64,000 bases of DNA from an uncultured Lentisphaeria bacterium (GTDB lineage Bacteria > Fidelibacterota > UBA8477 > JABMPR01). The notes below the pieces were generated by a model that saw only the letters and a program-made list of their open reading frames with translations, was not told where the DNA came from and searched no databases. Location: assembly GCA_964508765.1 (NCBI GenBank), contig CAZDVD010000010.1, forward strand, positions 14,595-78,594. The letters run 5' to 3'. A program made the translations under genes and the position numbers. Shown here in pieces: positions 23,746 to 63,808 of this stretch (its first letter is position 1; each line of letters begins with the position of its first letter).

Positions 23746-23755
23746 TCGGTCATTC

Positions 23756-38148: not shown

Positions 38149-38523
38149 CTAAATCATAAAACCAAAATAGCCCATTACTATACCAACAATGATCATAAAT
38201 AATCCTAATAATCGAGAACTTTTTAAAACGTTTTTGTAGTATGAAAGTGATTTGGGTATTATCACAACTATTATTCCCCCAATTAGCATTAACCAACTGA
38301 TTATAGTTATTAACACACTCCAATTTTTCACCCACAGGTTATGATATTCAATTAAAATTATACCTGCAATTATTCCCATAGAACCAGATACAAAAGTTAA
38401 AGCAGGTGATTTTTTAAAATCATTAACAATATCATTAAAATCAATAGTTCCCATTAATACAGCTATACCAGAGGAAAGGTAGATAACAGAAATAATTCGT
38501 GCTATTAATATTGATAATTCCAT
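38149..38523 (-). CDS. Small 4-TM membrane protein, unknown function
   Basis: 124 aa with four hydrophobic segments. Very AT-rich coding sequence. Lies 51 bp downstream of the FG-GAP gene. I recognised no family. Confidence 0.55.
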   Translation of the reverse strand: MELSILIARIISVIYLSSGIAVLMGTIDFNDIVNDFKKSPALTFVSGSMGIIAGIILIEYHNLWVKNWSVLITIISWLMLIGGIIVVIIPKSLSYYKNVLKSSRLLGLFMIIVGIVMGYFGFMI

Positions 38524-38574
38524 ATATATACTCCCTTTAATCTTAGGGCAAAGAGCCCAATGAATAGGTGGAGC

Positions 38575-42681: not shown

Positions 42682-42781
42682 TGCTTCCTCCAGGCTAAAA
42701 TCAAAACGGCTTCCGGTTGCCAAAACTCAATTTAGACATCCAAAAGCCGCTTCGTAGACTAAACCTACCGGAAGTATTTCC

Positions 42782-45700: not shown

Positions 45701-45868
45701 CAGAGAAATATTAGATGAAGGATTCCAGCCATTAAACTCACCCGGAATATGCACACTAGAAGGATTGTTATCGGGATAATAATAGAAGGTGACATCCACA
45801 CTATCCTGTGCGGTGCCAATATTCACAATTAGCAGGAGGACTATCAGGCTGTTTGCGTATTTTCTCAC
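42782..45868 (-). CDS. Secreted GH13 alpha-amylase-family enzyme with N-terminal CBM48/Ig-like modules, a PKD-like module and a T9SS CTD
   Basis: GTG start with GGAG upstream, plus a signal peptide. VTFYYYPDNNPSSVHIPGEFNGWNP. SSDPNGGALSYKW. GH13 regions are VIQDVTPNHSG, GIDGYRFDVYWG, MLLGEDDG and FMESQDEDR. CTD QCFPNPFNPITTISYNL...KTIKMVFLR. Confidence 0.85.
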   Translation of the reverse strand: MRKYANSLIVLLLIVNIGTAQDSVDVTFYYYPDNNPSSVHIPGEFNGWNPSSNISLMSYDALENSWSKTVRLRVGGPSPLPKPGISIPGAYQYKFHDGGWFSDPLNPRRNIPDEGNTYLFIHDPTIHLLLPNSTTASGPVRTGHPEITAYIFPSTKTEIDPNTLALSVGDTTFTNIGEAYDPVTNKFRFVIPVALSNGKHSLSISASTTGGNTNTDSSSFSIQADQVQFFTRPAQTWKLTWQIQGAIFTPAGEPDQSIKSAEIYRSDASWFISVNQGKVDTTISLLPGNNIFKIRTIQDDQVITSNTLTIQKKVRHEPRAWIEIIYEGDILIFSGGSSSDPNGGALSYKWVENPDNPAAIGLMGATQEQVNLSVPSVPGEYFVSLEVTDEEGERDSTTQYFMVDPAGSVDISEYADNAQWVKNSRIYLLFFKAFTPDGTIAAAIPKLRYISAMGFNTIWVLPVMEVKDNIDNQINIGYNIEDFMRVESSYGSAQDYKDFIAEAHELGLKVIQDVTPNHSGKSHVFAQEAKLWGDFSQYWHYYQNRQTEIIDDNSNGLGNCFTSEGIHYYCGFSDALLSWNWRDLDARNYMIEVYEHWMNEYGIDGYRFDVYWGPSRKFGEANMGIPVRKALRRIKPDIMLLGEDDGTGVGTEYVYADQGGGLDLAYDFKAYFNAIRSFGFSSSSINKLHSELDNGSYYPGENSYYLRFMESQDEDRISYKYNSFEKTKPMASVIFTAPGVPMILNGQEVGWGKGMGAPGEPHLNDRRRGIIDWDFEGKSMLTPHYQRLAQIRAQFPAFSQHKQDTNGDGQVNGSDESDFDRVDTGNSILYAFLRPNENSNGLTVVNFEATEQTGTLNLSSENLKFDSDFSLSASYWVNNHYAGTSEQVTGAILQNFPVTLPAYGTAIYTISEQLEMVLIPAIPGYVNISDNPKVLPEEIILHQCFPNPFNPITTISYNLPEQSHVKLTVLDVIGREVTTLQDVTKPSGTYEVQWNGLDQSGCPLSTGVYFARLQAGEYTKTIKMVFLR

Positions 45869-48257: not shown

Positions 48258-49823
48258 TTACCACCAAACCATATACAACACTGATAGAATTGCAAAGATT
48301 CCAATAGAACCCACATTAAACAAGTTGTCCGTATGGAAAATATCTTTGTCCAGTTTGATGGCTTTCGGTGAATCTTCCCTTGATTCTAATAGAGTAATTA
48401 CAACTACGATAGCACTCAGCAGGAGGAAGACTACACCCATCCGATTTAAAAAGGGTAAACTCGGGATTAATATTTTGATTCCCAGAGAAAGTGGAATCGT
48501 TAGCACAGCAGCCCAAAGCGCTGAATTGGCAGTGGCCTTTTTCCAGAATAATCCAAAAATAAATATGGCAAATATTCCAGGACTAATAAAGCCGGTAAAC
48601 TCCTGGATAAACTGAAAGGCTTGTTCCAGAGAGGATAAAGTTGGCGCTATTATTACAGCTATAATTAAGGCAACCGCACTCGTAATTCGACCTGTCAATA
48701 CGAGTTTCTTCTCTGAAGCATCTTTATTGATAATCTGCTTATAGATATCCATTGAGAAGATAGTGGCCGTACTGTTGACCATAGAACTGAGCGATGAGAC
48801 GATGGCTGCTATTAATGCTGCAAAAGCCAATCCCTTTAGACCTACAGGGACAAAATTACTTAAAAGCCATGGGTAAGCTTCATCCGGTTTGGCAATATCT
48901 GCATTAAGGGCAAAAGCCACAATACCAGGAACGACCACGATGAGCGGAGTTAAAATCTTCAGGTATCCCCCAAATAGCAGGCCTCGCTGAGCTTCTTTGA
49001 TACTCTTGGCTGCTAATGCACGTTGGATGATATACTGGTTACAGCCCCAGTAAAAGAAATGGGCCATCCACATACCACCCAATAAAACACCAAGACCAGG
49101 AAGTTCGGCATAGTTCGAGTTAGATTTATCTAAAATCATATCAAATTTCTCTGGAACTTGTTTCAATAGGTCGCTGAATCCGACCAATGCTCCCCTGCCA
49201 CCACTAACCTGGTCTAAAGCAAAATAGGTCGTTACCAAACCACCAACAATCAGGATCAGGACCTGGACAACATCGGTCCAGACGACTGCTTTTAGACCAC
49301 CGTAAATCGTGTACAATGCAGAGAATGCCGCCAAGCCCACAATTCCCCACATCAGAGGGACACCTAGAATCGTTCGTAATGCCAGCGATCCCAGATAGAG
49401 AACAGATGTTAAATTTACGAATACATATAATAGTAACCAAAACACAGCAAGACCTGTTCTAACACGGCGATCATATCTGATTTCCATTAGCTGAGGCATG
49501 GTGTAGATGCCTTCTTTTAGAAATATGGGTAAAAAGAATTTAGCAACCACTATTAAGGTTATTGCAGCAGTCCATTCATAGGTCGCAATTCCCAATCCAA
49601 TCACAAATCCTGAACCTGACATTCCAATGTACTGTTCTGCTGAGATATTTGCTGCTATTAGTGAAGTCCCGATAGCCCACCATGGTAGCGATTTACTGGC
49701 GAGGAAATAATCGTTGGAATCTTTCTGGTGCCCTTTTGTCTCTCTGGATACATATAAGCCCAAACCAATAATAAACATAATGTAACTGACAAATACGACG
49801 TAATCTAAAGGTGAGAAATTCAT
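48258..49823 (-). CDS. Sodium:solute symporter (SSS family, SGLT/vSGLT-like sugar transporter)
   Basis: 521 aa, about 13-14 TM. YFLASKSLPWWAIGTSLIAANISAEQYIGMSGSGF, GGLKAVVWTDVVQ and typical SSS architecture. Confidence 0.9.
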   Translation of the reverse strand: MNFSPLDYVVFVSYIMFIIGLGLYVSRETKGHQKDSNDYFLASKSLPWWAIGTSLIAANISAEQYIGMSGSGFVIGLGIATYEWTAAITLIVVAKFFLPIFLKEGIYTMPQLMEIRYDRRVRTGLAVFWLLLYVFVNLTSVLYLGSLALRTILGVPLMWGIVGLAAFSALYTIYGGLKAVVWTDVVQVLILIVGGLVTTYFALDQVSGGRGALVGFSDLLKQVPEKFDMILDKSNSNYAELPGLGVLLGGMWMAHFFYWGCNQYIIQRALAAKSIKEAQRGLLFGGYLKILTPLIVVVPGIVAFALNADIAKPDEAYPWLLSNFVPVGLKGLAFAALIAAIVSSLSSMVNSTATIFSMDIYKQIINKDASEKKLVLTGRITSAVALIIAVIIAPTLSSLEQAFQFIQEFTGFISPGIFAIFIFGLFWKKATANSALWAAVLTIPLSLGIKILIPSLPFLNRMGVVFLLLSAIVVVITLLESREDSPKAIKLDKDIFHTDNLFNVGSIGIFAILSVLYMVWW

Positions 49824-49888: not shown

Positions 49889-52777
49889 TTACTTCAGCAA
49901 GATCTTAACGTCCCCCACCCTGTCCGCTTCTCTGACTTTTACATACAATAATGTTTGAAACTTATCAAAATACCATCCTTCAGGCAGGTCTAAAAACTGC
50001 GACCAACTGGTTGCTTTCTTTAATTTCGAATCTCCGTATAAAATCTTTTTTGCATTTCTATTTATTATCTGAAGAGTTATCTGGTCTGGAATGTCAGGTA
50101 AAGTGATATTTACATGTTTTTTTGTTTCATTAACACTTATATGCTTCATTGTGTTCTTGGCAGTTCTATAATCCAGCCAAAGATATTCAGTATTTTTAGC
50201 AGGATATATTCGAAATGTTAATCTTTTATATTTAGCAATATCATTTCCTACGTAGTTACCCAGAACATAGTCATCACTCAAATTCATTGGAATGATACTA
50301 CCAGATTTAGCAAACACAGGAATCTGATCAAAATTCACTTCATATCGAATATCTGTAGGTCCTTTTATCTTATCATGGCTCCAGAAATCAGTCCAATCAC
50401 CCGCTGGCAAATAGATATCACGATATTCATGGCCTTCATGGACGACAGGGGCAACAAGAAGATTGGATCCTAGCAGGTATTCATAAGATTCAGCAGCGGC
50501 TTTATTATCATCAGGGAATTCAAGTGCCAACTGACGCATCATTGGCAAACCTGTTTTTACGCTGAAATTGGCTTCAGAATATATATACGGCAGAAGGTTC
50601 ATTCGGATATTTATAAATTTTCGAAATACATCAATACAAGAACTGTCACCCGTAACCTCAGCCATATTCCATGGAGTACGAGCTCGACTGGGTACCGGAT
50701 CACCTGAAGTTTCTGAATGTAATTGCATAATTGATGAAAATGTCGTTGCAGCCACACTGCGTTTATACAATTCAACCGAAGGCATTTGGTCGTGAGCGAA
50801 ACCAGCCATATCCCATGCTACGAACGGAATTCCAGATATACCAGCAGACAGAACAGAGCGAATAGCTGCTCTAAATTCAGAAAATGTTGAACGCTGATCT
50901 CCATTCCAAGTTAGTGGGTGTTGCGCCGTTGTGGTTCCACCAGCCCTGCCAAACACCACCGTTTCATTTTTTAATGTTTTTAGATAATCATAATATGCTT
51001 GGTTATAAACATCAGGATAAGCGTTGTGCATCTCAACACCGGATCGGCCATCATGAAACTGAATTCCACTACCGTATGCAAATTCACCCCCATCAGTTTT
51101 AAATCCATCGATTCCAAGTTGATTGATCAAATATTTGCGTTTGGAGAACCACCATTTATTGGCTTCGGGATTCGTAAAATCAAACAATAAACTATTCCCA
51201 AACCATGCCCGGGGCATACGATAAGGTTCATGATCCTTAGTTTTGACAACATATCCTTGTTTCACCGCCTGAGCCTCATCAAGGTCACGCTGAGGATTGT
51301 CTTCTAGGCTGTACTTTAGTACCGGAATATTCCACAGTAATATTTTCATATTACTCTCGTGCACCTTTTGTACCATACTAACTGGATTGGGCCAACGGCC
51401 AGTAAATTGAAAATCATCCAGAGAGTAAGCCTCTGATGCTGGTTTCTGGCTGTACTGGGCATCGTTAAAAATATAAAAAGTCTCTTCATCACTCCATGCC
51501 TCTAACACGAGAACTGAAATGGGTATATTAAACTGTGATGCCAAAGCGATCTGATTTTCGATTTCGGACTGCCGATTCCATTCATTAGCAGAGATCCAAA
51601 GTCCAAACGCCCATATTGGAGGAAGAACGGGTTTACTAATCGCACTGCTATATGAAGAAAGAATCGCCTTCGAATCCTCGCCCCCGAATACGTAATATTC
51701 TAATACACTCCCAGTTTTAGTACGTGTATCCGTCAAGATTGTGCAACGGTCATCAGCATCTGTCGCCAAACGAAATTGCGAATAGGCTGTTGAGTTCAGA
51801 TAGAATCCATATCCACCACTATTTAGGTAAAATGGGATCGGGATATAGGTCTTTTCTTCCTGCTCATATGCTGTGTTTGTAACGTGAATATCAACATTGT
51901 CGAACCGTTTATCGAGATGATTATACCGCATCCCGAAGCCATAGAACGATTCCGTTTCTTCTGTATAGATATTTTCTTGAATTTTGATTATCTCATCATC
52001 CCTATTTTTCAAAAAGGCAATACTTCCATACTGATCATGATCGTCATTCCGCACTATAATTTGTTGATCCGTCAATTTCGTAAAGGTCCAGCGAAAAGGA
52101 TGTTTTGATATTTTCAGAGCATATTTTATTGTTCTTACTTCAACATAATCATCACTTTCTTTCATCATAATTGGAACATTTTTTTCAGCATTAGCTTCCT
52201 GATCATTTCCAAGTAAAACATTTAGCCGGAAATAATTCTCACTTGGAAACGAGATCTGAATTTTAGGATTAATTGAATCGTCCTCAGTATCACAATCAAG
52301 AATCAATATATTATCCGATAAGCGAACGTTTTGAACATCATTTAAGTGCACCCACTCACTTATCGGAAACTCGAAGGGCCCTACCTTCTCGAGTTTTGTC
52401 CCAAACAGCGCACTTATACTGTAGCTAATCTGATCCTCAGCGGAAAATGCTCCCAAAACGGCTTCCCAGAAGCATTCACCTTCATGATTTGCAATGTAAT
52501 TACCGTGAATTGGTTCCTGCTCGATCCCATTTTTTCGCCAGTGAACCCGCGGATCGATATCCAGCGTAAATCCTTTCGTACTGAAACCAACTCGGACGGT
52601 ATCACCTACTTCTGGAAAGTGAGGATTCAGTTCCGTAGAATATGGCGGTATCGCCAGTTCGCGCTTAGCATATAGATTCTCCCAGCCCAGTATGCTATGA
52701 TTAATGCTTGGGCTTGAAATCGCAGCCGAATTAGATCCAAGAAGAATTATTATCCATAAAAACTGATATTTTTTCAT
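49889..52777 (-). CDS. GH31 alpha-glucosidase (or alpha-xylosidase), secreted/periplasmic
   Basis: I prefer the ATG at 52777 (MKKYQFLWIIILLGSNSAAIS). GH31 blocks are GIDGFKTDGGE (nucleophile context), WNGDQRSTF and GISGIPFVAWDMAGF. Confidence 0.85.
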   Translation of the reverse strand: MKKYQFLWIIILLGSNSAAISSPSINHSILGWENLYAKRELAIPPYSTELNPHFPEVGDTVRVGFSTKGFTLDIDPRVHWRKNGIEQEPIHGNYIANHEGECFWEAVLGAFSAEDQISYSISALFGTKLEKVGPFEFPISEWVHLNDVQNVRLSDNILILDCDTEDDSINPKIQISFPSENYFRLNVLLGNDQEANAEKNVPIMMKESDDYVEVRTIKYALKISKHPFRWTFTKLTDQQIIVRNDDHDQYGSIAFLKNRDDEIIKIQENIYTEETESFYGFGMRYNHLDKRFDNVDIHVTNTAYEQEEKTYIPIPFYLNSGGYGFYLNSTAYSQFRLATDADDRCTILTDTRTKTGSVLEYYVFGGEDSKAILSSYSSAISKPVLPPIWAFGLWISANEWNRQSEIENQIALASQFNIPISVLVLEAWSDEETFYIFNDAQYSQKPASEAYSLDDFQFTGRWPNPVSMVQKVHESNMKILLWNIPVLKYSLEDNPQRDLDEAQAVKQGYVVKTKDHEPYRMPRAWFGNSLLFDFTNPEANKWWFSKRKYLINQLGIDGFKTDGGEFAYGSGIQFHDGRSGVEMHNAYPDVYNQAYYDYLKTLKNETVVFGRAGGTTTAQHPLTWNGDQRSTFSEFRAAIRSVLSAGISGIPFVAWDMAGFAHDQMPSVELYKRSVAATTFSSIMQLHSETSGDPVPSRARTPWNMAEVTGDSSCIDVFRKFINIRMNLLPYIYSEANFSVKTGLPMMRQLALEFPDDNKAAAESYEYLLGSNLLVAPVVHEGHEYRDIYLPAGDWTDFWSHDKIKGPTDIRYEVNFDQIPVFAKSGSIIPMNLSDDYVLGNYVGNDIAKYKRLTFRIYPAKNTEYLWLDYRTAKNTMKHISVNETKKHVNITLPDIPDQITLQIINRNAKKILYGDSKLKKATSWSQFLDLPEGWYFDKFQTLLYVKVREADRVGDVKILLK

Positions 52778-52862
52778 TTGACAAAGTGCCTTCCCTATCA
52801 CCGAACAAATGTTTGCGGGTAATTCGTTGAATCCAGTAAAGTCTAGTTCTTCACTAGACCAA

Positions 52863-53891
52863 CTATAACTTAATGTTTATTGAAAAGCCCTGTATGGGTT
52901 CAAATATTCCAAAAGCTTGAAAGGAATAATCAACTGTGAGTCCCTTTCCAAGAAAAGGGGTTATTAATCCAAACCCGCAACTAAATCCTTTTTCTGTCTT
53001 CAGGGCAAATAAACTTTGATATCCGAATCGAATCTGAAGTACTCTATAGATCGATATCTCTGTTCCAATATTTAGGGTTTCTTCGTTGTTGGTTGGTCTT
53101 GTTGCATCAGCTGAAAGCACTATTCCAAGATTCTCCCCAATTGACATCGGCAAAGCCGTACCTACTGTAAAACTCAATGGGATCGGCCAAGAATCTGTCT
53201 TCATATAGGCCACCAATGTTTCGTTATTACCATTATTTTGCGGATTGATATCTATACGATGGCGAAGATCTCGGCCATGGAGTTGCATTTCTCCACCAAA
53301 ATTTCGTATTGTCGCACCAATTTGTAGGCCACCGAATTGTGTAATAAAGAGAAGTCCCAAATCTGCGGCACCTGTCCACGCTTTCTCGTGCCATATTACT
53401 TGTTCGATATATTTTAGCGTCCCACCTATCGAAAAGCGATCAGTGATATTACTGGCATAACTCAGTCCGACTGATAAATCTCTAGCCTCCCAAAATTCTC
53501 CTGTACCATCCGGCATAGCCACTGTAGTGACTTTTTCCCTGTCACCATAATCAACTTGATTAACACTGATACCAATCGCATGCTGGTCAAATATTGCAAG
53601 TTGGAGACCAACCCATTTGTGGTTTGATCCAACAAGATAATTGGTTTGAGAAGCATAAAGCATCGATTGTGCCATTCGGGAGATAGCTCCTGGATTCCAA
53701 TATAGAGCTGATGGATCATCTACAATCGCCGTGACGGCTCCTCCCATTCCAATTGCCCTCATACCCACTGGTATACCTAAAAATGGAGCTGCTGATGTTC
53801 CAACTTTACTTTGGGCGTTCAAAGAAGGATCCAATAGTCCGGTGACGATTTGGATAATTACATAAAGAAATATAATTTTACGTTTAATCAT
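52863..53891 (-). CDS. PorV/PorQ-like (FadL-fold) outer-membrane beta-barrel, paralog of 19372-20439
   Basis: 342 aa. KVGTSAAPFLGIPVGMRAIGMGGAVTAIVDDPSALYWNPGA. C-terminal ...GFSINIKL. Starts 2 bp after the stop of the 1303-aa gene. Confidence 0.7.
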   Translation of the reverse strand: MIKRKIIFLYVIIQIVTGLLDPSLNAQSKVGTSAAPFLGIPVGMRAIGMGGAVTAIVDDPSALYWNPGAISRMAQSMLYASQTNYLVGSNHKWVGLQLAIFDQHAIGISVNQVDYGDREKVTTVAMPDGTGEFWEARDLSVGLSYASNITDRFSIGGTLKYIEQVIWHEKAWTGAADLGLLFITQFGGLQIGATIRNFGGEMQLHGRDLRHRIDINPQNNGNNETLVAYMKTDSWPIPLSFTVGTALPMSIGENLGIVLSADATRPTNNEETLNIGTEISIYRVLQIRFGYQSLFALKTEKGFSCGFGLITPFLGKGLTVDYSFQAFGIFEPIQGFSINIKL

Positions 53892-53893
53892 AG

Positions 53894-56800
53894 TTATTTA
53901 ATAATTGCCAGTTTACCAGTTGCTCTACCTACAGTGGACTCCACTACATAAAAATAGACTCCGAAAGCAACATCCAGATTCTCCCTTGAACGAATGTCCC
54001 ACGCGATTGTGCCACTATTGATTCCCTCAGATAGTTCTAATGTTCTTACTAAACTTCCATCTGAGGAAAAAATGTGCACCTTTGCACCTGCTGGAAGTTT
54101 TCGGAACTCAATACGACGTTCTCCGCGTCCACTGGTAATAGTCGGGGGCAAAGGACTTTCCATAACATTGGCAAATACATATGGATTCGGCACTACCTGG
54201 ATCTTATCCAATTCATTTCGAGCATTTACCTCTTGCACAAAAGGTCTTTCTGTTTTGAATTTATATTTATCACCATTCCTAAATGGTTTTGAAACACTGA
54301 TCCGCAATTCATCGCCATCACCAAATTGAAAGGCAGTATCCGCTTCTCCAATATTTGTGAAGAAGAGCGTCCAGATCATCTGGTATTCTCCATCTGGCCG
54401 TTTCCAAAATGTGTAGATGTAATCCTTAGGCTCAATCGTATACACTGAATCAGATTCGTATGCACGATTAAAAGCATGAAAGAACGGCACTTCAGTTGAA
54501 TCATTGAGATTCAGAATTCGAAAATTACTGCTAACGGACCTCAACCCCCCCATCTGCACAGCGAGATCGTTTGGACGTACATAACGCGTTGTGTCTCCAA
54601 ATTGAATAAGTAAGTCTGCCGGATATTCTTTACCTTCCAGCTGTCTGCCACCCAAGCTGAAGCTAGATGTTAATGTATACCATTCGTATTGCCGATCTCC
54701 TGTATTCCAATACGATAAAGTAGGATCTTGTACTCCTTGAATATCCCAGTCATTCTCAAAATTAAGTTGCAGACCGTCAAAAATATCTGTGTCGAAAGTT
54801 TCCTCTGTAAAAGGACTTTCTTGCATATTGGTGCTTTTGTATACGGGATAATACTGGTATTTAACAATATAATCCGCTGTTTCGGATGATCCATCAACTC
54901 GATGCTTTATTTTTCCGTTTAGAAAATCAATTTCAAATTCATCAACCGATAGGTATGTATTTGGATCTGATAGATGGCTTATTATTACGGTACCTTCTTC
55001 AATGTGCTCGTGCTTTAAATATTGAAAGTCTGAACCAATTATTACCGTTTCGGATATACCAGTAACATCTAACACAGAATAGTTTGTCGTTATGGGAGCG
55101 AATTCATCAGGATCTGCCCAATCCAAGTTGGGCTCACCGATATCTGGTTTGCCATTATTTTGAGTACTATCTGGATCAAGAACACTAATATTCCCGTCAG
55201 AACCAATATCATCATTAAGCACATTCCAATTACCGTTATTGTCTATCCTGTCCATTTGAGTATCCTCAAAGATTACATTGTAATTGTGACCTGTAAGGGC
55301 GGACTCATCAATTATATCGTATCTAATGCTTCCAGTTCCTTTCCCATCTACTCGATCGAGAGTTGTGTCGGTATTGGCCCGATTGTAGCCTGCAACTGGC
55401 GGAGTCGGTCGAACCACCACAGTATTTTGATTTGTTTGGATTTTACCATCCGCGAGGATTGAAATAAACTTCGTCGTTTCGGATGGAATCATGCCCAAAT
55501 CCACTTCTCCGTGGTCATAGGCGGTTACAGCATAAAAATAGCGTCTGCCATTATCAACGTTTTCATCAACATAAGTATGTCGCAACCCTGTGTCTGTACC
55601 GAGGTCAAAAGTGTATCCTCCATTGTCTTGGAAATACTGATCCTCTGTTGGAAAAAGTCCTGTTATTCCGTTTTCTAAATCATATTGCTCCAGATATGTG
55701 TAGCCCACTACATTTCCATACACATCTGTCACCGACCTAACATCATTAAAGTCCGAATCAGTTGCTTTATATATGCGGTAGCCTTCAAAATCTTTGTTTC
55801 GGGTAACCGGATCAATACTGTCTTCCGCCTTTCGGTCCCAGTAAAGTGTTACTTTTCCATCTCCAGGTACTGCGCTCACTGTGGGAAGAGTAGGTGCAGT
55901 TGGAAAGCTATAGTCACTATTGTATATCTGTTGAACTGTCTTCCGATTCTTCAATAAGTCATCAAGATTTTCGCCGTAAAGCAGTGCTAACGAAAAACGT
56001 TGAGTCTCTCCAGCAAGTAATGGAAAATAGGCCGCACCATATATAAAATCACCATCTTCACCGCGTATTGGATTACCATCTTGAATACTTTGTGGTACAT
56101 CAAAGTATCCTGGCTGTAACCATTGCCAGAGCGCCTCGTCATCACCCATTGGATACCGATTTGCAGGTGTAAAATAATTGAAGCTGGTTAAGCCGATTTG
56201 ATCAGATTCATCAACATCCGTACGATCGAAGTTTGCTTCTCCATCGGTGGGGAAACCATCACCTTCCCCATAATCATTCGTGAGAGGAATTCCATCAGCA
56301 CCTAGATCATCAAATTCAATATTCCAGTCGCCGTCGTTGTCTATTCCATCATCCCGTCTCTCATCGATTAGGGGATCGTGAAGTCCAAGACCATTGATGT
56401 AGTCTATATAGCAGACTGGGTTAATTTTGTCAAAAAGGATAACATCATTTTCTATGTCTTTTCGGACCTGACGATAATGAAGAAGGTAGTTTTCGTCGAT
56501 TAACCCATCCAAATCATTATCGATTCCATCATAAGCATCTGGATTGGCGTTATAATCATTATTTGCGCTGCCTTCACTGAAACCGGTTTCACCTGCAATC
56601 AGTTGTAAGCTGTCATCTAGGCCGCGTGTAAAAATCATTAAAGTATCACTGTTTATCGTTAGCAGGTTTCGTTGGTAGTTATCGTCAATTAGGACGATTT
56701 CATCTCCTAAGTCATAAACGATAGTGTCAAAATCACTTTCTTCAAATTGTGGTGCCGCGAATGAAAGTGTAATCCCGTCCGCTAGCGACTCAATGTTGTT

Positions 56801-57805
56801 ATCGTCATCATTATCAATACCATCATATGGATTTCCTGGACTTTCTAAATAGGCATATCCTACCATTCCGACATCTCCAACCCAAAGAGGATTTCGGGAA
56901 CAGTCCTTATCATAATCACCTGTATAGGTAATATCCTTCTCAACATCAAAAAAGGACCAATCGTCATCCCATTCTCCCACATCCGCTCCACCGCCACTAA
57001 CGCCGATATAGGTACCGCAGAGCATCCCGAAGGTTACACGATCATAGTCCGTGGTACTGTTATTAGTAACTTCATACAGCCAAAATATTATATCACTAGC
57101 AAGTGGACGGGCCCACTGCATACCCCGCACTTTAACTTCGATACCTAATCCATTTCGTGTTAGATTATTATTATCAGGTTTAAAGGCCACACCCCATTCA
57201 TTGTTCTCTGCATAATTGAACTCTTCATCATTATTATCATCCATAACATAGAAGCTCTCTTGATCAGCATTGGAAAGTCCTTTCCCCATAAAACTGTTCC
57301 AACTACCTGGCCATCCAGGATCAACGGGATCATTGAATTTGTCAGGCCACGAGGATGGCCAGGTATTCGGATCATTACTCATTGCAATATTATATTGATT
57401 TTCATTCAAATACCCTTGAACTGGTTCGAATGTCCAATACTTACCAGCGTTGGATTGTTCCACTGATACACTTGGTCGTGATGCATTACAAACAACCACA
57501 CTATGAAATTTTTTAATTCTCTGTGATACGGAATCAAAATAAGTCACCTCCGCACCGACCAAGGGGGCTAAATCGCCGATATAGCCATTGTTGTCATGCT
57601 TCCAGGCACCAATAGGTCCATTGAAAGGTTGACCAATGACTCCCCAATTACTGAATGTGGTGCGTACTAGATTAGCGTTATGGACTCCAGATCTTCTGAA
57701 TCGGACGCCACTATTCTGCTGAGCATTTAGCATTCCCGCAATGGCCAGCGTCATTATGCTACACGCTAAAAACCAAACTCCAGAAAATTTCGTTAATCGC
57801 CTCAT
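53894..57805 (-). CDS. 1303-aa secreted Ca-binding-repeat protein, paralog of 20443-23745
   Basis: It shares these blocks with the 1100-aa protein: SNDPNTWP, NADQESFYVMDD, DIIFWLYEVTNNSTT, ESPGNPYDGIDNDDD, DGIDNDGDWN...GEGDGFPTDGEANFDRTDVDESDQIGLT, FEGYRIYKATD, VVPNPYV, SGRGERRIEF, GKLAIIK. Confidence 0.8.
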   Translation of the reverse strand: MRRLTKFSGVWFLACSIMTLAIAGMLNAQQNSGVRFRRSGVHNANLVRTTFSNWGVIGQPFNGPIGAWKHDNNGYIGDLAPLVGAEVTYFDSVSQRIKKFHSVVVCNASRPSVSVEQSNAGKYWTFEPVQGYLNENQYNIAMSNDPNTWPSSWPDKFNDPVDPGWPGSWNSFMGKGLSNADQESFYVMDDNNDEEFNYAENNEWGVAFKPDNNNLTRNGLGIEVKVRGMQWARPLASDIIFWLYEVTNNSTTDYDRVTFGMLCGTYIGVSGGGADVGEWDDDWSFFDVEKDITYTGDYDKDCSRNPLWVGDVGMVGYAYLESPGNPYDGIDNDDDNNIESLADGITLSFAAPQFEESDFDTIVYDLGDEIVLIDDNYQRNLLTINSDTLMIFTRGLDDSLQLIAGETGFSEGSANNDYNANPDAYDGIDNDLDGLIDENYLLHYRQVRKDIENDVILFDKINPVCYIDYINGLGLHDPLIDERRDDGIDNDGDWNIEFDDLGADGIPLTNDYGEGDGFPTDGEANFDRTDVDESDQIGLTSFNYFTPANRYPMGDDEALWQWLQPGYFDVPQSIQDGNPIRGEDGDFIYGAAYFPLLAGETQRFSLALLYGENLDDLLKNRKTVQQIYNSDYSFPTAPTLPTVSAVPGDGKVTLYWDRKAEDSIDPVTRNKDFEGYRIYKATDSDFNDVRSVTDVYGNVVGYTYLEQYDLENGITGLFPTEDQYFQDNGGYTFDLGTDTGLRHTYVDENVDNGRRYFYAVTAYDHGEVDLGMIPSETTKFISILADGKIQTNQNTVVVRPTPPVAGYNRANTDTTLDRVDGKGTGSIRYDIIDESALTGHNYNVIFEDTQMDRIDNNGNWNVLNDDIGSDGNISVLDPDSTQNNGKPDIGEPNLDWADPDEFAPITTNYSVLDVTGISETVIIGSDFQYLKHEHIEEGTVIISHLSDPNTYLSVDEFEIDFLNGKIKHRVDGSSETADYIVKYQYYPVYKSTNMQESPFTEETFDTDIFDGLQLNFENDWDIQGVQDPTLSYWNTGDRQYEWYTLTSSFSLGGRQLEGKEYPADLLIQFGDTTRYVRPNDLAVQMGGLRSVSSNFRILNLNDSTEVPFFHAFNRAYESDSVYTIEPKDYIYTFWKRPDGEYQMIWTLFFTNIGEADTAFQFGDGDELRISVSKPFRNGDKYKFKTERPFVQEVNARNELDKIQVVPNPYVFANVMESPLPPTITSGRGERRIEFRKLPAGAKVHIFSSDGSLVRTLELSEGINSGTIAWDIRSRENLDVAFGVYFYVVESTVGRATGKLAIIK

Positions 57806-60627
57806 ATATTTATTCTAAATCCCATTTCGATTTTTCGGGGCTCACTGTAATAACCGGGATTAAGGAAGTACTTTTTAACAGAATTAATGGGTGTCGCAAT
57901 ATTATTGGTCTCCACTCGATCTATATCGTTGGTAAATCCAGCTCTTCCTGTGTCATTGAACACAACCAATTCATTTTTTCGATCTAATACGTTTTTGACT
58001 TTAATGAATATCTCCGGGGTAAATCTATGCCAAGGAACCTGCCAGTATCCATGCAAATCGAGGTTAAATGTAGTCGGTTTTATTTCTGAATTAGTTAGTA
58101 GCGATGTAATATCTTCCGACAAACGAGGCGTATATGGTAATCCGCTACCGTACCGGCCTAGGGCAATAAGGCCATAACCATCTGAACTGTTGAATCCCAA
58201 TCTAGCATTTATTGTATGGCGCTGATCCCAGTCCAACGGATTAATCTGAATCTCAGGTTCCGCTCCACCCGCTACAGCATTACGAAAAGCATCTGGATCA
58301 CTCGCTGTTCCTTCCACTATTTGAAACGTATAGTCGAGATTTGCAAACCATCCTTTAAGATTTCGTTGATTCAGAACAAGAGTCATTCCTTTAACCACAC
58401 CAAAGTCACTGTTCATAAGGCGACTATATCTGGCAAAATTCCCAAAGACATTAATTTCTTCAGCGCGTGTTCCTGTAAGATCTCGGATATCCTTTAGGAA
58501 GATCGTTAAATCCAAAGCAACATTTGGCGTTAATTGTTGTTGAAGACCAATTTCACCCGCAATCGTCTTCTCTGGATTGAGGTCAGCGTTGCCTATAATG
58601 CCAACATTGCCTGTTCTTCCCCCAAATTGAAATTCTGGATTACGATAAAGATGCTCATAATTCGGAATCTGGAAAAAGTGGCCATATGAAAAATGAAAGA
58701 CACCCTGATCGCTGATTGGAAAAGAAATTCCAATACGCGGACTTATCATTTGTTTTGCTGTGGCAGCTGAATACCAGTATTCCTTGCGCTGATCAATACT
58801 CACAAGGGGCTCATCAGGATTCTGATACCCACTCCCATCGAGGTCGAAGTATATATTATCAGGTCGAATAGGGTTGTAAATATCGGGGTCAGTTGGATCA
58901 CTTAAAATAACGCCATCGGGTTCAAAATAATCCCAACGAACTCCAATGTTCATGACTAATTCATCATATTCAATTTTATCCTGAAGAAATGATGATATTT
59001 CAACGGGGTTATTCTGTGACAAACTACTATAAAGCAAACTTGTTGGATTGATTGTCGGGTGGATATATGGTGAAAATGCCGTTGGTACATCCACGCTAAA
59101 ATCGACATAGTAATCACCTTGGGACGGTCTAATTTCGAAATCCCGAATCCAGATTCTATTCCTCTTCCAATCAAACCCAGTTTTTAATTGGTGGTGAGTG
59201 TTAATTTGCGATGTAAAGTTAAATTTTAAGTAATTTGAACTACTCTCCCTCCGATAATGGTCGTTTTCAGTACCGCCAACATGAAATTGATAGGCAAAAC
59301 GATCCAAATAATAAGAATGTACGTACGTTGTGCTGTCGCTATTTGCACTCTTTGAAGAAAGTCGTCTCATGTAGGATCGGTCGCTTGAGGAATAAGCAAT
59401 ATCAAAATAACTATTTAGTGAAAGTTGCTTTTGTAGCTGCACGATATTTGTAATTCCAGTGATTTGCGTTGGAGCAAGACCGCTGGGATTATAATAAAAC
59501 AAATGATCGCCATTCTCGAAATCTCGCAGTTCCTCGTCATCATAATAATAGCTATAGGTAAGATGAGAAGAATTTGAAAGTCTGTATTGTAGTTTACCCT
59601 GAAAATATATTTGTTCTCTACTATTCATGGATTTCCATTGTTGATCTCCCAGCATCGTAGTTGAATCATGAATCACTAATTCATAATCTTCATTGTAATA
59701 TGCTACTGCATTAGGAAGAAATTTCTGTTCACCAAAAATCCAACCATCTGACTTATGTATTTTTGCATTCACTGAGAAGAAAAGTTGATCCTTGAGTAGT
59801 GGACCATAAAGACTTCCTTCATAGTTGGATATTGCAATCGGATCGAACTGACTAATATGTGGATAAATAGCTGAATGGTTACTCAAGTGCCCGCCGGTGT
59901 AACTTTCGACTGAGCCACCCAATTTATTGCTCCCAGCGCGTGTAACAATATTTACAACCCCAGACATTACGTTGCCATACTCAGCATTGAAAGCACCTGA
60001 TATAACCTGTAACTCTTGCACCATATTCTTATTCACATTCACCGTAGATTCTCGGTTATATGCATCCGTTACAGGTATCCCATCTATCAAATATGCGACC
60101 TCGCCAACTCGACCACCGCGCAGGCTGCCATCAACAAATCCAGCCTGCATCTCTATTGCTTCACTCAATTCACTGATTGGAAGCTGTTTCATCTCTTCAG
60201 CGCTAATTATTGCTATTGAGGACGTCAGATCTTTTTGAATCATGGGTTTGACCGCAGTAACGGTGACAGCTTCACCTTCAATTGACTGCATCGACATTTC
60301 GATGTCTATCTGCTGGGTCAGGTCAATTGAAATTTCAACTCCACTCATGTTCACACTTTGATAGCCAATCATAGAGAATGCAACTGTGTAGACTCCTGGC
60401 GGAACATTCAGAATAGCATAGTAACCATTGGCATCGCTTGCAGCTCCAAGATTGCTACCTTTTAGGATGACATTACATCCATAGAGCACTTGCCCATCAG
60501 CTTTATCAATAATACGACCAACTATTTTTCCGCTAACACCACCAAATAATTGAATATTGATTCCGACAAAGATAATCAAAAGGATTGTAAGTCTCTTACA
60601 TCTCCAACAATACTTTTCAGCTTGCAC
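57802..60627 (-). CDS. TonB-dependent receptor with a carboxypeptidase-regulatory-like N-domain, paralog of 23756-26425
   Basis: GTG start (uncertain). GKIVGRIIDKADGQVLYGCNVILKG...GYYAILNVPPGVYTVAFSMIGYQ. VAYLIDGIPVTDAYN. ISGAFNAEYGNVMSGVVNIVTR. SPRIGISFPISDQGVFHFSYGHFFQIPNYEHLY. The stop overlaps the next ATG (ATGA at 57802-57805). Confidence 0.9.
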   Translation of the reverse strand: MQAEKYCWRCKRLTILLIIFVGINIQLFGGVSGKIVGRIIDKADGQVLYGCNVILKGSNLGAASDANGYYAILNVPPGVYTVAFSMIGYQSVNMSGVEISIDLTQQIDIEMSMQSIEGEAVTVTAVKPMIQKDLTSSIAIISAEEMKQLPISELSEAIEMQAGFVDGSLRGGRVGEVAYLIDGIPVTDAYNRESTVNVNKNMVQELQVISGAFNAEYGNVMSGVVNIVTRAGSNKLGGSVESYTGGHLSNHSAIYPHISQFDPIAISNYEGSLYGPLLKDQLFFSVNAKIHKSDGWIFGEQKFLPNAVAYYNEDYELVIHDSTTMLGDQQWKSMNSREQIYFQGKLQYRLSNSSHLTYSYYYDDEELRDFENGDHLFYYNPSGLAPTQITGITNIVQLQKQLSLNSYFDIAYSSSDRSYMRRLSSKSANSDSTTYVHSYYLDRFAYQFHVGGTENDHYRRESSSNYLKFNFTSQINTHHQLKTGFDWKRNRIWIRDFEIRPSQGDYYVDFSVDVPTAFSPYIHPTINPTSLLYSSLSQNNPVEISSFLQDKIEYDELVMNIGVRWDYFEPDGVILSDPTDPDIYNPIRPDNIYFDLDGSGYQNPDEPLVSIDQRKEYWYSAATAKQMISPRIGISFPISDQGVFHFSYGHFFQIPNYEHLYRNPEFQFGGRTGNVGIIGNADLNPEKTIAGEIGLQQQLTPNVALDLTIFLKDIRDLTGTRAEEINVFGNFARYSRLMNSDFGVVKGMTLVLNQRNLKGWFANLDYTFQIVEGTASDPDAFRNAVAGGAEPEIQINPLDWDQRHTINARLGFNSSDGYGLIALGRYGSGLPYTPRLSEDITSLLTNSEIKPTTFNLDLHGYWQVPWHRFTPEIFIKVKNVLDRKNELVVFNDTGRAGFTNDIDRVETNNIATPINSVKKYFLNPGYYSEPRKIEMGFRINI

Positions 60628-60778: not shown

Positions 60779-62368
60779 CTATTTTAAAAGCATCATCTTT
60801 ATCACTTGTATGGATGTTTCAGTACTCAAGCGGCAAAAATAAACACCGCTAGAAAGTTGCAATTGTGACGCATTAAGTTGAAGATGGTAATTGCCAGCGC
60901 CCTGAAACTTCTGAACCAGTGTTCCCTCTTCAACCCCAAGTGCATTAAATACTTTCAGTTCGACATACTGATCAGAATGCAGCTCATACTCTATCGTAGT
61001 TGTAGGATTGAAAGGATTCGGATAATTCTGGCGCAAAGAATTTTGTTTTGGTAAATTGTCGATATCAGTTTCAATCGCTGTTTGAGGTGGAAAACTATTT
61101 AGGCTATCACCATCAAAATTAAAATAATCCATTATTTCAGCTGTTGCCTCGTCCCGTAGCAAATTTGTCCAATGATGACGATCGCTGTAAACGAATTCAT
61201 TCTCAAATACAGCACCGGATTCGACTGTAACGTCCTCTGCACCCGGATAATACATGGAGTATTTATACATTCTGATACCACCCTCAGTCCCAGCCGCATA
61301 CGTAACATTCCGTGACCATATGTTGTCATTCGCTATTATGTCGCCATTGCTGCCATTATCATTTAGCATTAGCATTGTCGGTGATGTTGTGGGATCAATA
61401 GTTGCGGTGTCATCCAGTGTCCAATTGCCAGCCCATCGATCTGGTAACCAGTAGGAAGCTCCTTTTAAACCAACATGCGTGATAATTGACGGATCAACTA
61501 ATTCGAGATTATGACGATTTCGTGGGGTGCTCATATCTACCTGATACAGTAGTGTGACATCTTGGAGGAAGTTTCCCACTACAGGAAATATTGATGGTTT
61601 AAAAGTGTCCATCTCGATCGTACTTCCATCTGCAGTATATGTGTATTGTCGCTTTGTTGACACTTCCCAACCACCATAGTTCTGATACTTTTCTCCAGGA
61701 CCAGCTTTCACTTTCCAACCGGTTGTACCTCCAGTAACACCCCTCACAGTAACTGTACAGGTGTATAGAGCTGCGGAAAAGGGCACCTCAACTAAATAGC
61801 GGGATGCATCGCTAGAAGTAATACTTTCCCATATATTTTCATCAAAGCCATAAAGTTTTAACTCATCTGTGCTTGGATCAAAATAATCGTCCCCAGTACC
61901 AATAATATCAGATAAATCTGCCGTAAATATTAGCGTATTCTCAACATAATCATAAACAGTTACAACGCTATCTCTATCAAACCAAGCAACAGGCAAGATC
62001 GTTTCTGGACTTTGCAAAGTAAAAGTTCGATCAGGACCAGACTCCCAAGGGTTACCCTGGTTGATTTGGAATTTGTACATAAAACTTTGTCCAACGGCAG
62101 TATCCGCCATAGCTACGGTAATCGTATAAATACTGTCCAGGTCATCATCACTCAGCGCTGGGATGGTCCAGCTCCAGTCACCTCCGAGACCTGTTTCGGA
62201 AACAAAGTTCCCATTGATAGTCACGCTATCTGTGGCCGGATTAAATAATTCCTCCTGAGCTCTGACTCCCATATTAACCCTAAAAGTTAGAGGAATCTCT
62301 GCGAATACATTAACTACAAAAACCATGCTGATTAATGTTAATGCAAATAGTAATTTTGATTTCATCAC
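60779..62368 (-). CDS. Secreted multi-module beta-sandwich (CBM-like) protein with a T9SS CTD
   Basis: Signal peptide MMKSKLLFALTLISMVFVVNVFAE. Modules begin LTFRVNMGV...DSVTINGNF...GDWS and LLYQVDMSTP.... CTD RQNYPNPFNPTTTIEYEL...GVYFCRLSTETSIQVIKMMLLK. Confidence 0.7.
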   Translation of the reverse strand: MMKSKLLFALTLISMVFVVNVFAEIPLTFRVNMGVRAQEELFNPATDSVTINGNFVSETGLGGDWSWTIPALSDDDLDSIYTITVAMADTAVGQSFMYKFQINQGNPWESGPDRTFTLQSPETILPVAWFDRDSVVTVYDYVENTLIFTADLSDIIGTGDDYFDPSTDELKLYGFDENIWESITSSDASRYLVEVPFSAALYTCTVTVRGVTGGTTGWKVKAGPGEKYQNYGGWEVSTKRQYTYTADGSTIEMDTFKPSIFPVVGNFLQDVTLLYQVDMSTPRNRHNLELVDPSIITHVGLKGASYWLPDRWAGNWTLDDTATIDPTTSPTMLMLNDNGSNGDIIANDNIWSRNVTYAAGTEGGIRMYKYSMYYPGAEDVTVESGAVFENEFVYSDRHHWTNLLRDEATAEIMDYFNFDGDSLNSFPPQTAIETDIDNLPKQNSLRQNYPNPFNPTTTIEYELHSDQYVELKVFNALGVEEGTLVQKFQGAGNYHLQLNASQLQLSSGVYFCRLSTETSIQVIKMMLLK

Positions 62369-62383: not shown

Positions 62384-63808
62384 TTACTGTTTTATACTCA
62401 GATTTTTAGTCCTGGAGTAGCGTCTGAGTATTTTGTTTGTCACTCCAGAAACGTAAGATTTACGATCAATTAGACATATTAGATATACGCTCAAACAATT
62501 GTAAAGTAGGGAGATTGAAAAAAACTGCATCAAGTGATCCTGATAGGCCGTGCCTGAAAATAGTATTCGGGCTATTAGTATTTCTGATAACCATCCCCAA
62601 CTAAGTGAAAAATTGATAGATTTTATTGATCTATTTGGTTCAATAATAGAATTCAAGAATACTGCTAAAACCGGAATTGAGAATCCGATACATATCGTCA
62701 ATAGTATTTTCAATATCGAATAATTAATAAAGGGGGAAAGCCAGGTAAGCAGAAGTGCAATGACTGTCGAGAGCGCTATTGTTAAGCGACGAACCAAGAT
62801 CAAAACACCATCGGTGGTTGTCTCCCTGTATTTTATTTTGAAAATGTGGGATGCTACGACGTGAGATGTAGACCAAAAGACTGACATTAGGCCAAACATG
62901 CACACACCGCTAATAATAATAAATAAAAAGCCGTTAAACTTAAATTGATAATTTATGGCATTGTTCGTATTAGTAACATAAAAACCTTGACTCATTATAA
63001 TTGAGAAGAAATAAAAACCAGCAAGAGCCATGGCTCCCAAACTCAGTATTTTGCTGTTAACTCCGTGGGATGAGTTTTTGGCGGTCAAGTCACGATGGTT
63101 TCCAACATCACCTATCCAGATGCTGCTCAGAACTATACCTAGCAGAGTAATTACCCAGGGTTCAATAGTGACCACAGGCTCAGATGGTGCAGAAATTAAG
63201 TTTTTGAATTGTAGAATCTGTGCTCCAGAATTCCAAATAGAAAGAATCACCAAACTTATTGATACACCTAATCCAACAACTAATCCGACCCGGATAAATC
63301 CTGTCCGCCCTAGCGACATAAGACCTACTCCTGAAATCGTGATTAATAAAACTAAAATTACAAACGAATAACTTTTATACATGGATTCGAATAAGTAAAA
63401 ATAAGTAAAAATAAGTATGGGGAGCTTCAGGCCAAGATTGACCAGAATTTCGAAGGTGTTGTACATACCGCTTTCGGCAAAATGTCTTCCTCCGTATCGC
63501 GTGGATACGGATTTTGATTTCATATTTGCGTGAAATTGACCATAGACAACAAAGGAGGTTATTCCAACGACTCCCCATAGATATGCATTTTCTAAAGTAC
63601 TCAATGTGTAATGTTTCATAAATAGAATAATTGGTAATATATATGGTAATGTTGAAGCGGATACCCACAGCAAGCGCCTATATTTTGGTGGCCACTCATG
63701 TTGTCGAAAGAAAGGTATTTGGATAGCAGTTGCTAAGTTCACAAAGATAACACTCAGAAAAAAAAGAACCACAGCGACAATGCTTATTGCTAAAAATGTA
63801 GTTGGCAT
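62384..63808 (-). CDS. Polytopic membrane protein (about 12-13 TM), unknown family
   Basis: A 474-aa, strongly hydrophobic, AT-rich ORF that ends 15 bp before the 529-aa gene. I saw no recognisable transporter signature. Confidence 0.5.
   Translation of the reverse strand: MPTTFLAISIVAVVLFFLSVIFVNLATAIQIPFFRQHEWPPKYRRLLWVSASTLPYILPIILFMKHYTLSTLENAYLWGVVGITSFVVYGQFHANMKSKSVSTRYGGRHFAESGMYNTFEILVNLGLKLPILIFTYFYLFESMYKSYSFVILVLLITISGVGLMSLGRTGFIRVGLVVGLGVSISLVILSIWNSGAQILQFKNLISAPSEPVVTIEPWVITLLGIVLSSIWIGDVGNHRDLTAKNSSHGVNSKILSLGAMALAGFYFFSIIMSQGFYVTNTNNAINYQFKFNGFLFIIISGVCMFGLMSVFWSTSHVVASHIFKIKYRETTTDGVLILVRRLTIALSTVIALLLTWLSPFINYSILKILLTICIGFSIPVLAVFLNSIIEPNRSIKSINFSLSWGWLSEILIARILFSGTAYQDHLMQFFSISLLYNCLSVYLICLIDRKSYVSGVTNKILRRYSRTKNLSIKQ

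Follow-up and report, generated by a model that had tools for sequence, protein, structure and literature searches.

The window analysed here, a stretch of 64,000 nucleotides (nt) from contig CAZDVD010000010.1 of an uncultured bacterium of the Fidelibacterota lineage, harbours at positions 52863 to 60627 three adjacent genes which encode a TonB-dependent receptor, a secreted protein of very large size (in the following, the "giant") and a β-barrel protein of the outer membrane. The same three genes are found a second time in the window, and the triad recurs in many genomes and metagenomes, where it behaves as one diverging unit and lies in a context of glycan catabolism. The two copies are arranged as follows, with sizes in amino acids (aa).

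57802-60627, minus strand: TonB-dependent receptor, 941 aa, GTG start
53894-57805, minus strand: the giant, a secreted protein of 1303 aa without a family in Pfam or NCBIfam
52863-53891, minus strand: PorV/PorQ-family outer-membrane β-barrel, 342 aa
19372-26485, minus strand: paralogous triad, with receptor (23756-26485), giant (20443-23745) and barrel (19372-20439)

The stop codon of the receptor gene and the start codon of the giant gene overlap in an ATGA at 57802-57805, and the ATG of the barrel gene at 53891 stands 2 nt past the TAA of the giant gene (53896-53894), just as the first-pass annotation of this DNA had described. In related loci, the junctions within the triad typically comprise few nucleotides, with 4-nt overlaps being common at both of them. 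Given this gene overlap and its recurrence in other loci, the three genes may be translationally coupled. Promoter and terminator scans of the window returned fewer promoter-like sites than shuffled sequences did; the sigma-70 consensus may not apply to the host.

In pairwise BLASTP comparisons of the two window copies, the receptors are 37% identical over 925 columns (E = 0.0), the giants 40% over 866 columns (E 2e-165), with 29% identity in the last 299 columns, and the barrels 36% over 346 columns (E 4e-68). The motifs by which the copies had been matched initially are all found in these alignments, namely NADQES(F/Y)(Y/F)VMDD, DGIDNDGDW, DESDQIGLT and FEGYRIYKATD in the giants, GYY.ILNVPPGVY and SYGHFFQIP.YE.LY in the receptors, and MGGAV.A.V.D.SALYWNP in the barrels. 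The open reading frame (ORF) of the other copy's receptor reaches 26485, where 26425 had been noted before, and an internal methionine about 20 codons into this frame, which would lie near 26425, looks the more plausible start. A fourth paralogous gene was also considered, since both receptors are preceded by a gene for a type IX secretion system (T9SS) cargo protein, one of 529 aa in this locus and one of 610 aa in the equivalent position of the other. The two cargo proteins have only their sorting domains in common; the repeated unit is thus a triad and not a tetrad.

Homologues of the giant number in the thousands. Nearly all named ones are listed as "hypothetical protein" in the source databases, the sole other name being that of a partial entry, "T9SS type A sorting domain-containing protein". 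When 1.84 billion cluster representatives (50% identity) were searched exhaustively with a profile of the family, E <= 1e-30 was reached by 1195 of them and E <= 1e-10 by 4389. The closest named relatives of the window giants come from metagenome-assembled genomes (MAGs) of Marinimicrobia (Neomarinimicrobiota), and in a search with a giant from Ignavibacteriaceae, all organism-named entries among the best 120 matches were MAGs as well. For a comparison of gene neighbourhoods, 160 loci were sampled, 80 from species-representative genomes and 80 from metagenomes, which belong to Marinimicrobia/Fidelibacterota, KSB1, Ignavibacteriota, Calditrichota and MAGs labelled Bacteroidota.

The three genes stand next to one another on one strand in all of these 160 loci in which the contig is long enough. 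Among 102 complete triads, the order receptor-giant-barrel is kept in 99, while the remaining three, L135 (3936-11630), L144 and L158, show the order receptor-barrel-giant. In two members of this subfamily, L135 and L158, a T9SS cargo containing CBM9 precedes the triad (the Pfam assignment being that of L135). Downstream of the giant, L135, L158 and a further locus, L140, have ORFs of about 480, 960 and 485 aa. L140 had been taken for an exception, having a giant without a downstream barrel; this was discarded, because its downstream ORFs of 476, 960 and 484 aa match the sizes in L135 and L158. It looks like a locus of the barrel-before-giant type whose contig begins at the giant. Genes for peptidyl-prolyl isomerases of the PPIC type (rotamases) recur beside the triads of several subfamilies, with three and six members in two scans.

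The three families were further compared through distance matrices over 104 triads, using distance methods and not maximum likelihood. The matrices of receptor, giant and barrel are correlated with each other (Mantel rho 0.60-0.77, p <= 0.005), and the average-linkage clusters of the three proteins correspond almost one to one; at k = 8, the adjusted Rand index between receptor and giant is 0.81, against a random maximum of 0.28. In neighbour-joining trees, 65 to 76 of 101 bipartitions are in common. In all three families, the nearest neighbours of the copy at 52863-60627 are the same seven loci and those of the other copy the same three. The giant of this copy is 44-57% identical to giants from genome MAGs labelled as several phyla, and that of the other copy up to 66% identical to giants on metagenome contigs, compared to 40% between the two within the window. 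Relatives from elsewhere are hence nearer to each copy than its own paralogue is, which means that the split predates much of the diversification or that whole modules have moved between lineages. The view that the duplication is old and that the three genes have been kept together is borne out by these matching subfamilies, and the congruence of the three families is evident from their common neighbours, clusters and bipartitions. In either case, the triad behaves as one diverging unit.

The giant of this copy starts with a signal peptide, probably cleaved at LNA↓QQN, which is followed by a body (about aa 30-800), a variable region (about aa 800-1190) and a C-terminal sorting domain (about aa 1195-1303). 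As a whole, it matches no Pfam or NCBIfam family, and when it was searched in six pieces against Pfam at E <= 10, only weak FlgD_ig and CHU_C matches on the C-terminus were obtained; comparison with the sequences of solved structures gave noise only. The Pfam and NCBIfam scans revealed neither a peptidase family nor a CAZy-related Pfam family nor a carbohydrate-binding module on it, and a lipoprotein signal is absent. Three Asp-rich loops of the DGIDND type, which are invariant across the family, lie in the body and are putative calcium sites. In about three quarters of the giants and barrels from the 104 triads, an [AS]Q dipeptide is present within aa 13-45, in comparison to 24 of 104 receptors. 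In examples from the window (LNA↓QQN, LVA↓QNN, LNA↓QSK), it is placed at the likely cleavage site of the signal peptide, reminiscent of what we take to be the "Q-rule" (N-terminal pyroglutamate) of secreted proteins of Bacteroidota.

Sliding-window identity shows the giants to be conserved at about aa 150-800 and again at about aa 1200-1303. The first-pass annotation had located the greatest differences in the middle of the proteins; this could not be upheld, as variation peaks in the C-proximal third, at about aa 800-1190, which is the least conserved part within the subfamily, too. Between subfamilies, identity is 14-31% at aa 851-1200 and 44-48% at aa 1201-1300, and aa 851-1000 of this copy's giant are gapped in 59-84% of the members of other subfamilies. 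It is reasonable to regard the variable region as a candidate substrate-specific binding module, whereas the well-conserved C-terminal domain would, as we read it, point to a conserved partner.

AlphaFold2 models of the giant were built on an alignment of 63 sequences and reached a pLDDT of 80 and a pTM of 0.77 for aa 1-860, and a pLDDT of 88 for aa 830-1303. In a Foldseek search with the N-terminal 860 aa, many FN3 structures matched an FN3-like domain at about aa 640-770. To this N-terminal part as a whole no fold is assigned, its resemblance to known structures being of the generic FN3/supersandwich kind with a TM-score of at most about 0.2. The C-terminal half is modelled as a string of β-sandwich domains, for which the top Foldseek match is PorZ (5m11, E 1.5e-5), with PorU (6za2) found as well, both at a TM-score of only 0.13-0.16. 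The last 75 residues or so superimpose on 8glk_D, the sorting domain of NucA in the T9SS translocon, over 74 columns with a TM-score of 0.62, an rmsd of 2.9 and a probability of 1.00; given that the Ig-like fold is common, this match is supportive only.

The assignment of the giant's C-terminus is carried by a profile-profile comparison, in which the last 112 residues of 104 giants were aligned by hhalign with the seven type A sorting domains of the window that score above threshold. The alignment extends to the final residue, with a probability of 97.5% and an E-value of 6.4e-12, and discloses a 13-aa insertion in the giants relative to the canonical domains. This SGRGxR insertion forms part of a PNPY...GRGxR-type motif which is present in essentially all intact giants (76 of 104 by the strict pattern, the others having near variants such as GRGTR, GRGPR and GRLRR) and absent from all seven canonical domains. 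By this alignment, the giant's C-terminus is a variant T9SS type A sorting domain. T9SS is otherwise in use in this organism, with at least ten other proteins of the window carrying an above-threshold Por_Secre_tail.

The barrel also has a signal peptide (probable cleavage LNA↓QSK). The PorV family model NF033709 is matched end to end by both barrels of the window, with 166.3 bits for 52863-53891 and 197.4 bits for 19372-20439 at a cut-off of 90. The equivalog models (NF033710 and NF033711 for PorV and PorQ) stay below their cut-offs, the scores of this and the other copy being 105 and 99 bits for PorQ (cut-off 220) and 45 and 65 bits for PorV (cut-off 250); the cut-off of the PorV2 equivalog is likewise not reached. 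A PorP/SprF model was not among the matches reported for the barrel in the Pfam and NCBIfam scans. With a profile of 46 barrel relatives, the solved PorV of Flavobacterium johnsoniae (6h3i_F) is matched at E 2.1e-24, compared to E 0.096 only for the single sequence. The label "PorV-like" given to this gene at the outset is hence justified, and, judging by the model scores, the triad barrel is a distinct branch of the PorV/PorQ family, neither PorV nor PorQ proper.

The receptor consists of a carboxypeptidase-regulatory-like N-terminal extension (aa 35-123; CarbopepD_reg_2, 61 bits, above cut-off), a plug (aa 131-222) and what is probably a barrel, large in size and divergent in sequence. The Plug model (PF07715) scores 33.4 bits against a gathering threshold of 23.9, and 32.0 bits in the paralogue. 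Between the N-terminal domain and the plug, at about aa 118-124, the sequence EAVTVTA (family consensus EEVVVxAERP) resembles a TonB box. This C-terminal region has no Pfam TonB_dep_Rec match but partial NCBIfam matches at aa 627-815. When the receptor family profile was compared with solved structures, many TonB-dependent transporters were matched over the plug, positions 522-718 matched PhuR, and the N-terminal end aligned to a SusC homologue. The SusC/RagA model TIGR04056 is matched by the first ~230 residues only, with 53.4 and 42.6 bits for the two receptors of the window against a cut-off of 368. No member of the SusD family was reported among the 39 scanned ORFs of the window, nor was one found in 127 neighbour ORFs from 35 related loci among the 25 commonest families listed per scan. 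With a score that far under the cut-off and without SusD in these scans, this is not a SusC/SusD system.

The genes around the triad of this copy are the following.

60779-62368, minus strand: 529-aa T9SS type A cargo, upstream of the receptor; Por_Secre_tail 35.6 bits, above cut-off
62384-63808, minus strand: 474-aa ORF of unassigned family, further upstream, locus membership uncertain
49889-52801, minus strand: GH31 glycosidase, directly downstream of the barrel; Pfam Glyco_hydro_31 domains
48258-49823, minus strand: sodium:solute symporter; Pfam SSF 243 bits, TIGR00813 381 bits against a cut-off of 184
46038-48113, minus strand: GH97 glycosidase; Pfam GH97 N-terminal, catalytic and C-terminal domains
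42782-45868, minus strand: GH13 α-amylase-family enzyme; Alpha-amylase 122 bits, PKD/Ig, canonical T9SS type A sorting domain (Por_Secre_tail 28.5 bits)

Among these, the symporter is the probable inner-membrane sugar importer, and the GH13 enzyme probably serves the locus as its endo-enzyme, either secreted or at the surface. Relatives of the latter with 38-45% identity are encoded downstream of triads in six sampled loci. The NCBIfam equivalogs matched by the GH31 enzyme (α-xylosidase, α-glucosidase) remain below threshold, and the GH97 enzyme is likewise under its equivalog cut-offs. The 529-aa cargo has a sub-threshold match to the starch-binding module CBM20 (E 0.001, 19 bits against 23.3) and is a possible starch-binding surface protein; relatives of its body adjoin triads in eight loci. 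The 474-aa ORF has no Pfam match even at E <= 1, and a search for relatives was negative both in the first 80 loci (E 1e-8) and in all 160 (E 1e-10).

The proposed attachment of this triad to an α-glucan locus holds at the family level, as the genes for GH31, symporter, GH97 and GH13 lie downstream of it and the same families occur beside relatives. Among the neighbours of this copy's subfamily, LacI was counted in 31 loci, GH13 in 23, symporters in 10, GH97 in 4 and GH31 in 4; as far as neighbourhoods can tell, the link of the subfamily to α-glucan enzymes is well supported at the level of families. With an outer-membrane transporter, carbohydrate-active enzymes and an inner-membrane sugar transporter, plus LacI in relatives, this is a polysaccharide utilisation locus (PUL) in the broad sense. 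In the 31 related loci, LacI lies upstream of the receptor; for the present locus none was seen within the window, which ends at 64000. Just downstream of the GH13 gene and on the same strand (41042-42723), two adjacent genes encode DUF1670 proteins, one with helix-turn-helix domains, which may be the regulators of this LacI-less locus. At some loci, regulators of the TrmB type stand in place of LacI (flanks of L075 to L160).

The other copy belongs to a different setting.

9948-29528: locus of the other copy, with LacI, 610-aa T9SS cargo, triad, GH94, two PF10091 genes and ABC transporter

The PF10091 family, named "putative glucoamylase", is presumably a GH144 family of β-1,2-glucanase-like enzymes. 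The layout of this locus is retained in six sampled loci; GH94, GH144-like and 610-aa cargo genes accompany the triad in six of seven loci related to it, the seventh having the cargo only. No NCBIfam model names the enzymes of this locus, which, going by its gene families, could serve the utilisation of β-1,2-glucan or another β-glucan. A third subfamily is accompanied by GH130, ABC transporter, LacI and CBM4_9, and the remaining subfamilies have GH13, GH31, GH77, CBM20, GH26 and CBM9 among their neighbours. T9SS cargo genes are near the triads in most loci.

Outside the two loci, the window holds a 1160-aa sensor (30362-33844) with Reg_prop β-propeller repeats, Y_Y_Y and a histidine-kinase ATPase domain, for which no receiver or DNA-binding domain was reported; it resembles what we take to be the sensor part of the hybrid two-component PUL regulators of Bacteroidota. 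The regions 1-9372 and 34340-40410 are dense in T9SS type A cargo and carbohydrate-active enzymes. They comprise GH3 and GH17 genes (831-3792), a 446-aa cargo (3892-5232), a protein of 1329 aa that combines CBM4_9 and a lamin-tail domain with a sorting domain (5383-9372), a β-helix protein that has a sorting domain and a weak Peptidase_C13 match (34340-37390), and a cargo with FG-GAP repeats (38575-40410).

Based on these findings, we favour, with a probability of roughly 55%, the interpretation that the triad is an ancient and widely conserved outer-membrane module, acting as the uptake core of PULs in phyla of the FCB group apart from the classical SusC/SusD scheme of Bacteroidota, in which the giant would be exported by the T9SS, be tethered to the barrel and work with the receptor in glycan capture. 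Its signal peptide would take the giant across the inner membrane, and the T9SS, by way of the variant type A domain, across the outer one. This domain would stay uncleaved and dock onto the PorV/PorQ-family barrel encoded by the adjacent gene, resulting in surface display. The conserved N-terminal body would then cooperate with the TonB-dependent receptor, while the variable region may aid in the capture of the substrate. In the α-glucan locus, the T9SS-exported GH13 enzyme and the 529-aa cargo would attack the polymer outside the cell; the oligosaccharides would enter through the receptor, be trimmed by the GH31 and GH97 enzymes (taken as periplasmic) and reach the cytoplasm across the inner membrane via the symporter. 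The giant would, thus, fill the place which SusD and the surface glycan-binding proteins have in Bacteroidota.

A retained sorting domain has precedent, in that PorZ and PorU keep theirs uncleaved and are held by it on PorQ and PorV, respectively (PMC10202324). In addition, genes of type B cargo have been found clustered with those of cognate PorP/SprF barrels, which are proposed to be the anchors, and a cognate PorV-like barrel has been suggested to shield a sorting domain from cleavage (PMC10202324). A more specific version, to which we attach somewhat less than even odds, has receptor, giant and barrel as a stable outer-membrane complex, with the uncleaved, SGRGxR-marked sorting domain sitting on a private barrel and the giant capturing glycans for the transporter, as an uptake design independent of SusD; its diversification into substrate-specific subfamilies would predate or accompany the radiation of the phyla Marinimicrobia, Ignavibacteriota, Calditrichota, KSB1 and their relatives.

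Several points weigh against a glycan-capturing, barrel-tethered giant. Glycan binding by the giant is argued from context, with no carbohydrate-binding module being recognisable, and the N-terminal body, which is common to subfamilies associated with different glycans, cannot itself carry the specificity. For this body, Foldseek finds no convincing structural relative (best TM-score about 0.2). The adjacency of the genes would also fit a role in secretion or biogenesis unrelated to uptake. Por_Secre_tail (PF18962, gathering threshold 27) does not match the giant, whose last 119 aa give only sub-threshold matches to FlgD_ig (17.3 bits) and CHU_C (13.3 bits; range 13-16); the sorting domain misses the Pfam model because of the insertion. 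Finally, a regional mirror-tree comparison, in which the sorting domain is the part of the giant most correlated with the barrel (0.62 against 0.30-0.55, a small margin with no significance test), is suggestive only of a link between the two.

A role of the triad on the secretion side could mean that giant and barrel are a locus-specific attachment machinery of the T9SS, that is, counterparts of PorU-PorV or PorZ-PorQ which process or anchor the cargo of the locus (the GH13 enzyme and the 529-aa protein) close to the receptor and do not bind glycan themselves. This would agree with PorZ and PorU being nearest in fold to the C-terminal half of the giant, with the size of the giants (1000-1300 aa), which is near that of the solved PorU chains (about 1080 residues), with the higher score of the barrel for the PorQ than for the PorV model (105 and 45 bits) and with the T9SS cargo genes beside the triads in most loci. 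However, these fold matches have low TM-scores and probably derive from common sorting and Ig-like domains. PorU is a gingipain-like cysteine peptidase and PorZ has a β-propeller, but no peptidase family was detected on the giant and its N-terminal model is devoid of a β-propeller; moreover, no cysteine is invariant across the giant subfamilies (C714 is so only in the subfamily of the other copy), making a PorU-like cysteine peptidase mechanism unlikely. On balance, an attachment machinery of this kind is improbable. Even less credit is given to the receptor acting as exporter of the giant, with the barrel receiving it, in the manner of Oar, a TonB-dependent transporter of Myxococcus xanthus. 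The overlap of the receptor and giant genes would be in keeping with this, and so would the receptor's carboxypeptidase-regulatory-like N-terminal domain, which Oar presumably has as well. For protein secretion that depends on a TonB-dependent transporter there is a published precedent, since Oar is reported to be required for the secretion of the protease PopC (PMC6434023). Yet, a separate route is unnecessary for a protein that has a T9SS-type sorting domain in an organism that uses the T9SS; passage of a giant of 1000-1300 aa with a compact, multi-domain model through the receptor would seem unlikely; and the complete sugar catabolism and inner-membrane sugar transporters of the loci call for an importer. 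An Oar-like export is, hence, a slim prospect.

If the triad serves glycan use, the giant could still be a new surface-displayed carbohydrate-active enzyme (hydrolase, lyase or transglycosylase) whose products are imported by the receptor. Its N-terminal part faintly resembles the supersandwich domains of GH94 and GH15-type enzymes as well as dextran dextrinase (probability up to 1.0, TM-score about 0.2), many acidic residues are invariant in the giants, and glycan catabolism is the genomic context throughout. The supersandwich domains in question are, however, non-catalytic accessory domains, most of the invariant Asp, Asn and Gly residues sit in the DGIDND-type loops that resemble calcium sites, and no CAZy-related Pfam family was detected on the giant. 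That one body is common to subfamilies linked to α-glucan, β-glucan and mannan argues against a substrate-specific active site, and we deem an enzymatic role distinctly unlikely. The Asp-rich loops also recall the calcium-binding repeats that are common in adhesins, and adhesin repeats, an S-layer protein and the biofilm matrix protein RbmA are among the structures that match the variable region in fold, so that one might think of a generic adhesin or S-layer-like protein with an anchor, unrelated to glycan use. Such a protein would not account for the receptor being adjacent in every locus with enough sequence, for the co-divergence of the three families and for the retention of a particular enzyme set by each subfamily across phyla; this last alternative has hardly any weight in our judgement.

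Marinimicrobia, Ignavibacteriota, Calditrichota and KSB1 are mostly uncultured carbon degraders which are abundant in oceans, sediments and groundwater. Little is understood of their polysaccharide uptake, as the loci described here are without SusC/SusD, the marker pair that serves to find utilisation loci in Bacteroidota. Glycan loci of these bacteria could be searched for by way of the triad, each subfamily of which appears to report a substrate class via its enzyme neighbours. A definition of the giant family, with about 1,200 clusters, no Pfam or NCBIfam model and nearly all members named "hypothetical protein", would improve the annotation of many metagenomes. The second copy in the window makes it apparent that the system is modular and paralogous. 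Furthermore, the triad brings together TonB-dependent import and a T9SS with cognate anchors of the PorV type, two systems that are usually studied apart.

Full-text searches of the literature for the gene combination retrieved no description of the three-gene module, and the Caldithrix genome paper deals with vitamin receptors only. In the genome of Melioribacter roseus, a member of the Ignavibacteria, a "sus operon" for starch (Mros0764-0758) has been described, with three outer-membrane genes, Mros0761-0759, labelled SusC, SusD and SusE, flanked by GH13/GH31 genes on one side and a secreted GH13 on the other (Kadnikov et al. 2013, PMC3534657). The gene content of this operon matches the surroundings of triads in Ignavibacteriota MAGs, and Mros0759-0761 may be a triad that was labelled by analogy.

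Among the characterised systems, the PorZ-PorQ and PorU-PorV pairs of Porphyromonas gingivalis likewise combine a large surface protein that has a T9SS C-terminal domain with a barrel of the PorV/PorQ family. In contrast to them, the triad barrel is under the equivalog cut-offs, the giant is without peptidase or propeller domains, and the pair is always found with a TonB-dependent receptor in carbohydrate loci and in many paralogous subfamilies. The type B cargo systems with PorP/SprF barrels, such as SprB-SprF of F. johnsoniae and PG1035-PorP, have in common with the triad that the cargo gene lies beside that of a dedicated barrel and that the cargo can be very large. They differ in that the giant's C-terminus aligns with type A domains, CHU_C being weak and sub-threshold, in that the triad barrel matches the PorV/PorQ family and in the proposed role, which is nutrient uptake and not gliding. 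Oar is a large TonB-dependent transporter as well, for which neither T9SS cargo nor a PorV-like partner is reported.

A further parallel would be the SusC/SusD-type PULs, e.g., the starch system of Bacteroides thetaiotaomicron. Both comprise a TonB-dependent transporter with an N-terminal extension and a surface partner, surface or secreted hydrolases, periplasmic glycosidases, an inner-membrane transporter and mostly a regulator (LacI in the triad loci), and in both, diversification in a single genome has produced paralogous loci that are specific to their substrates. Unlike SusC/SusD systems, the triad loci are without a SusD-family lipoprotein in our scans and their receptor is outside SusC/RagA; its partner is a protein of 1000-1300 aa with a T9SS sorting domain, joined by a PorV/PorQ-family barrel. 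The parts of the triad, i.e., TonB-dependent transporter, T9SS cargo and PorV/PorQ-family barrel, are all of known kinds, whereas their combination in three genes is new to the literature that was searched.

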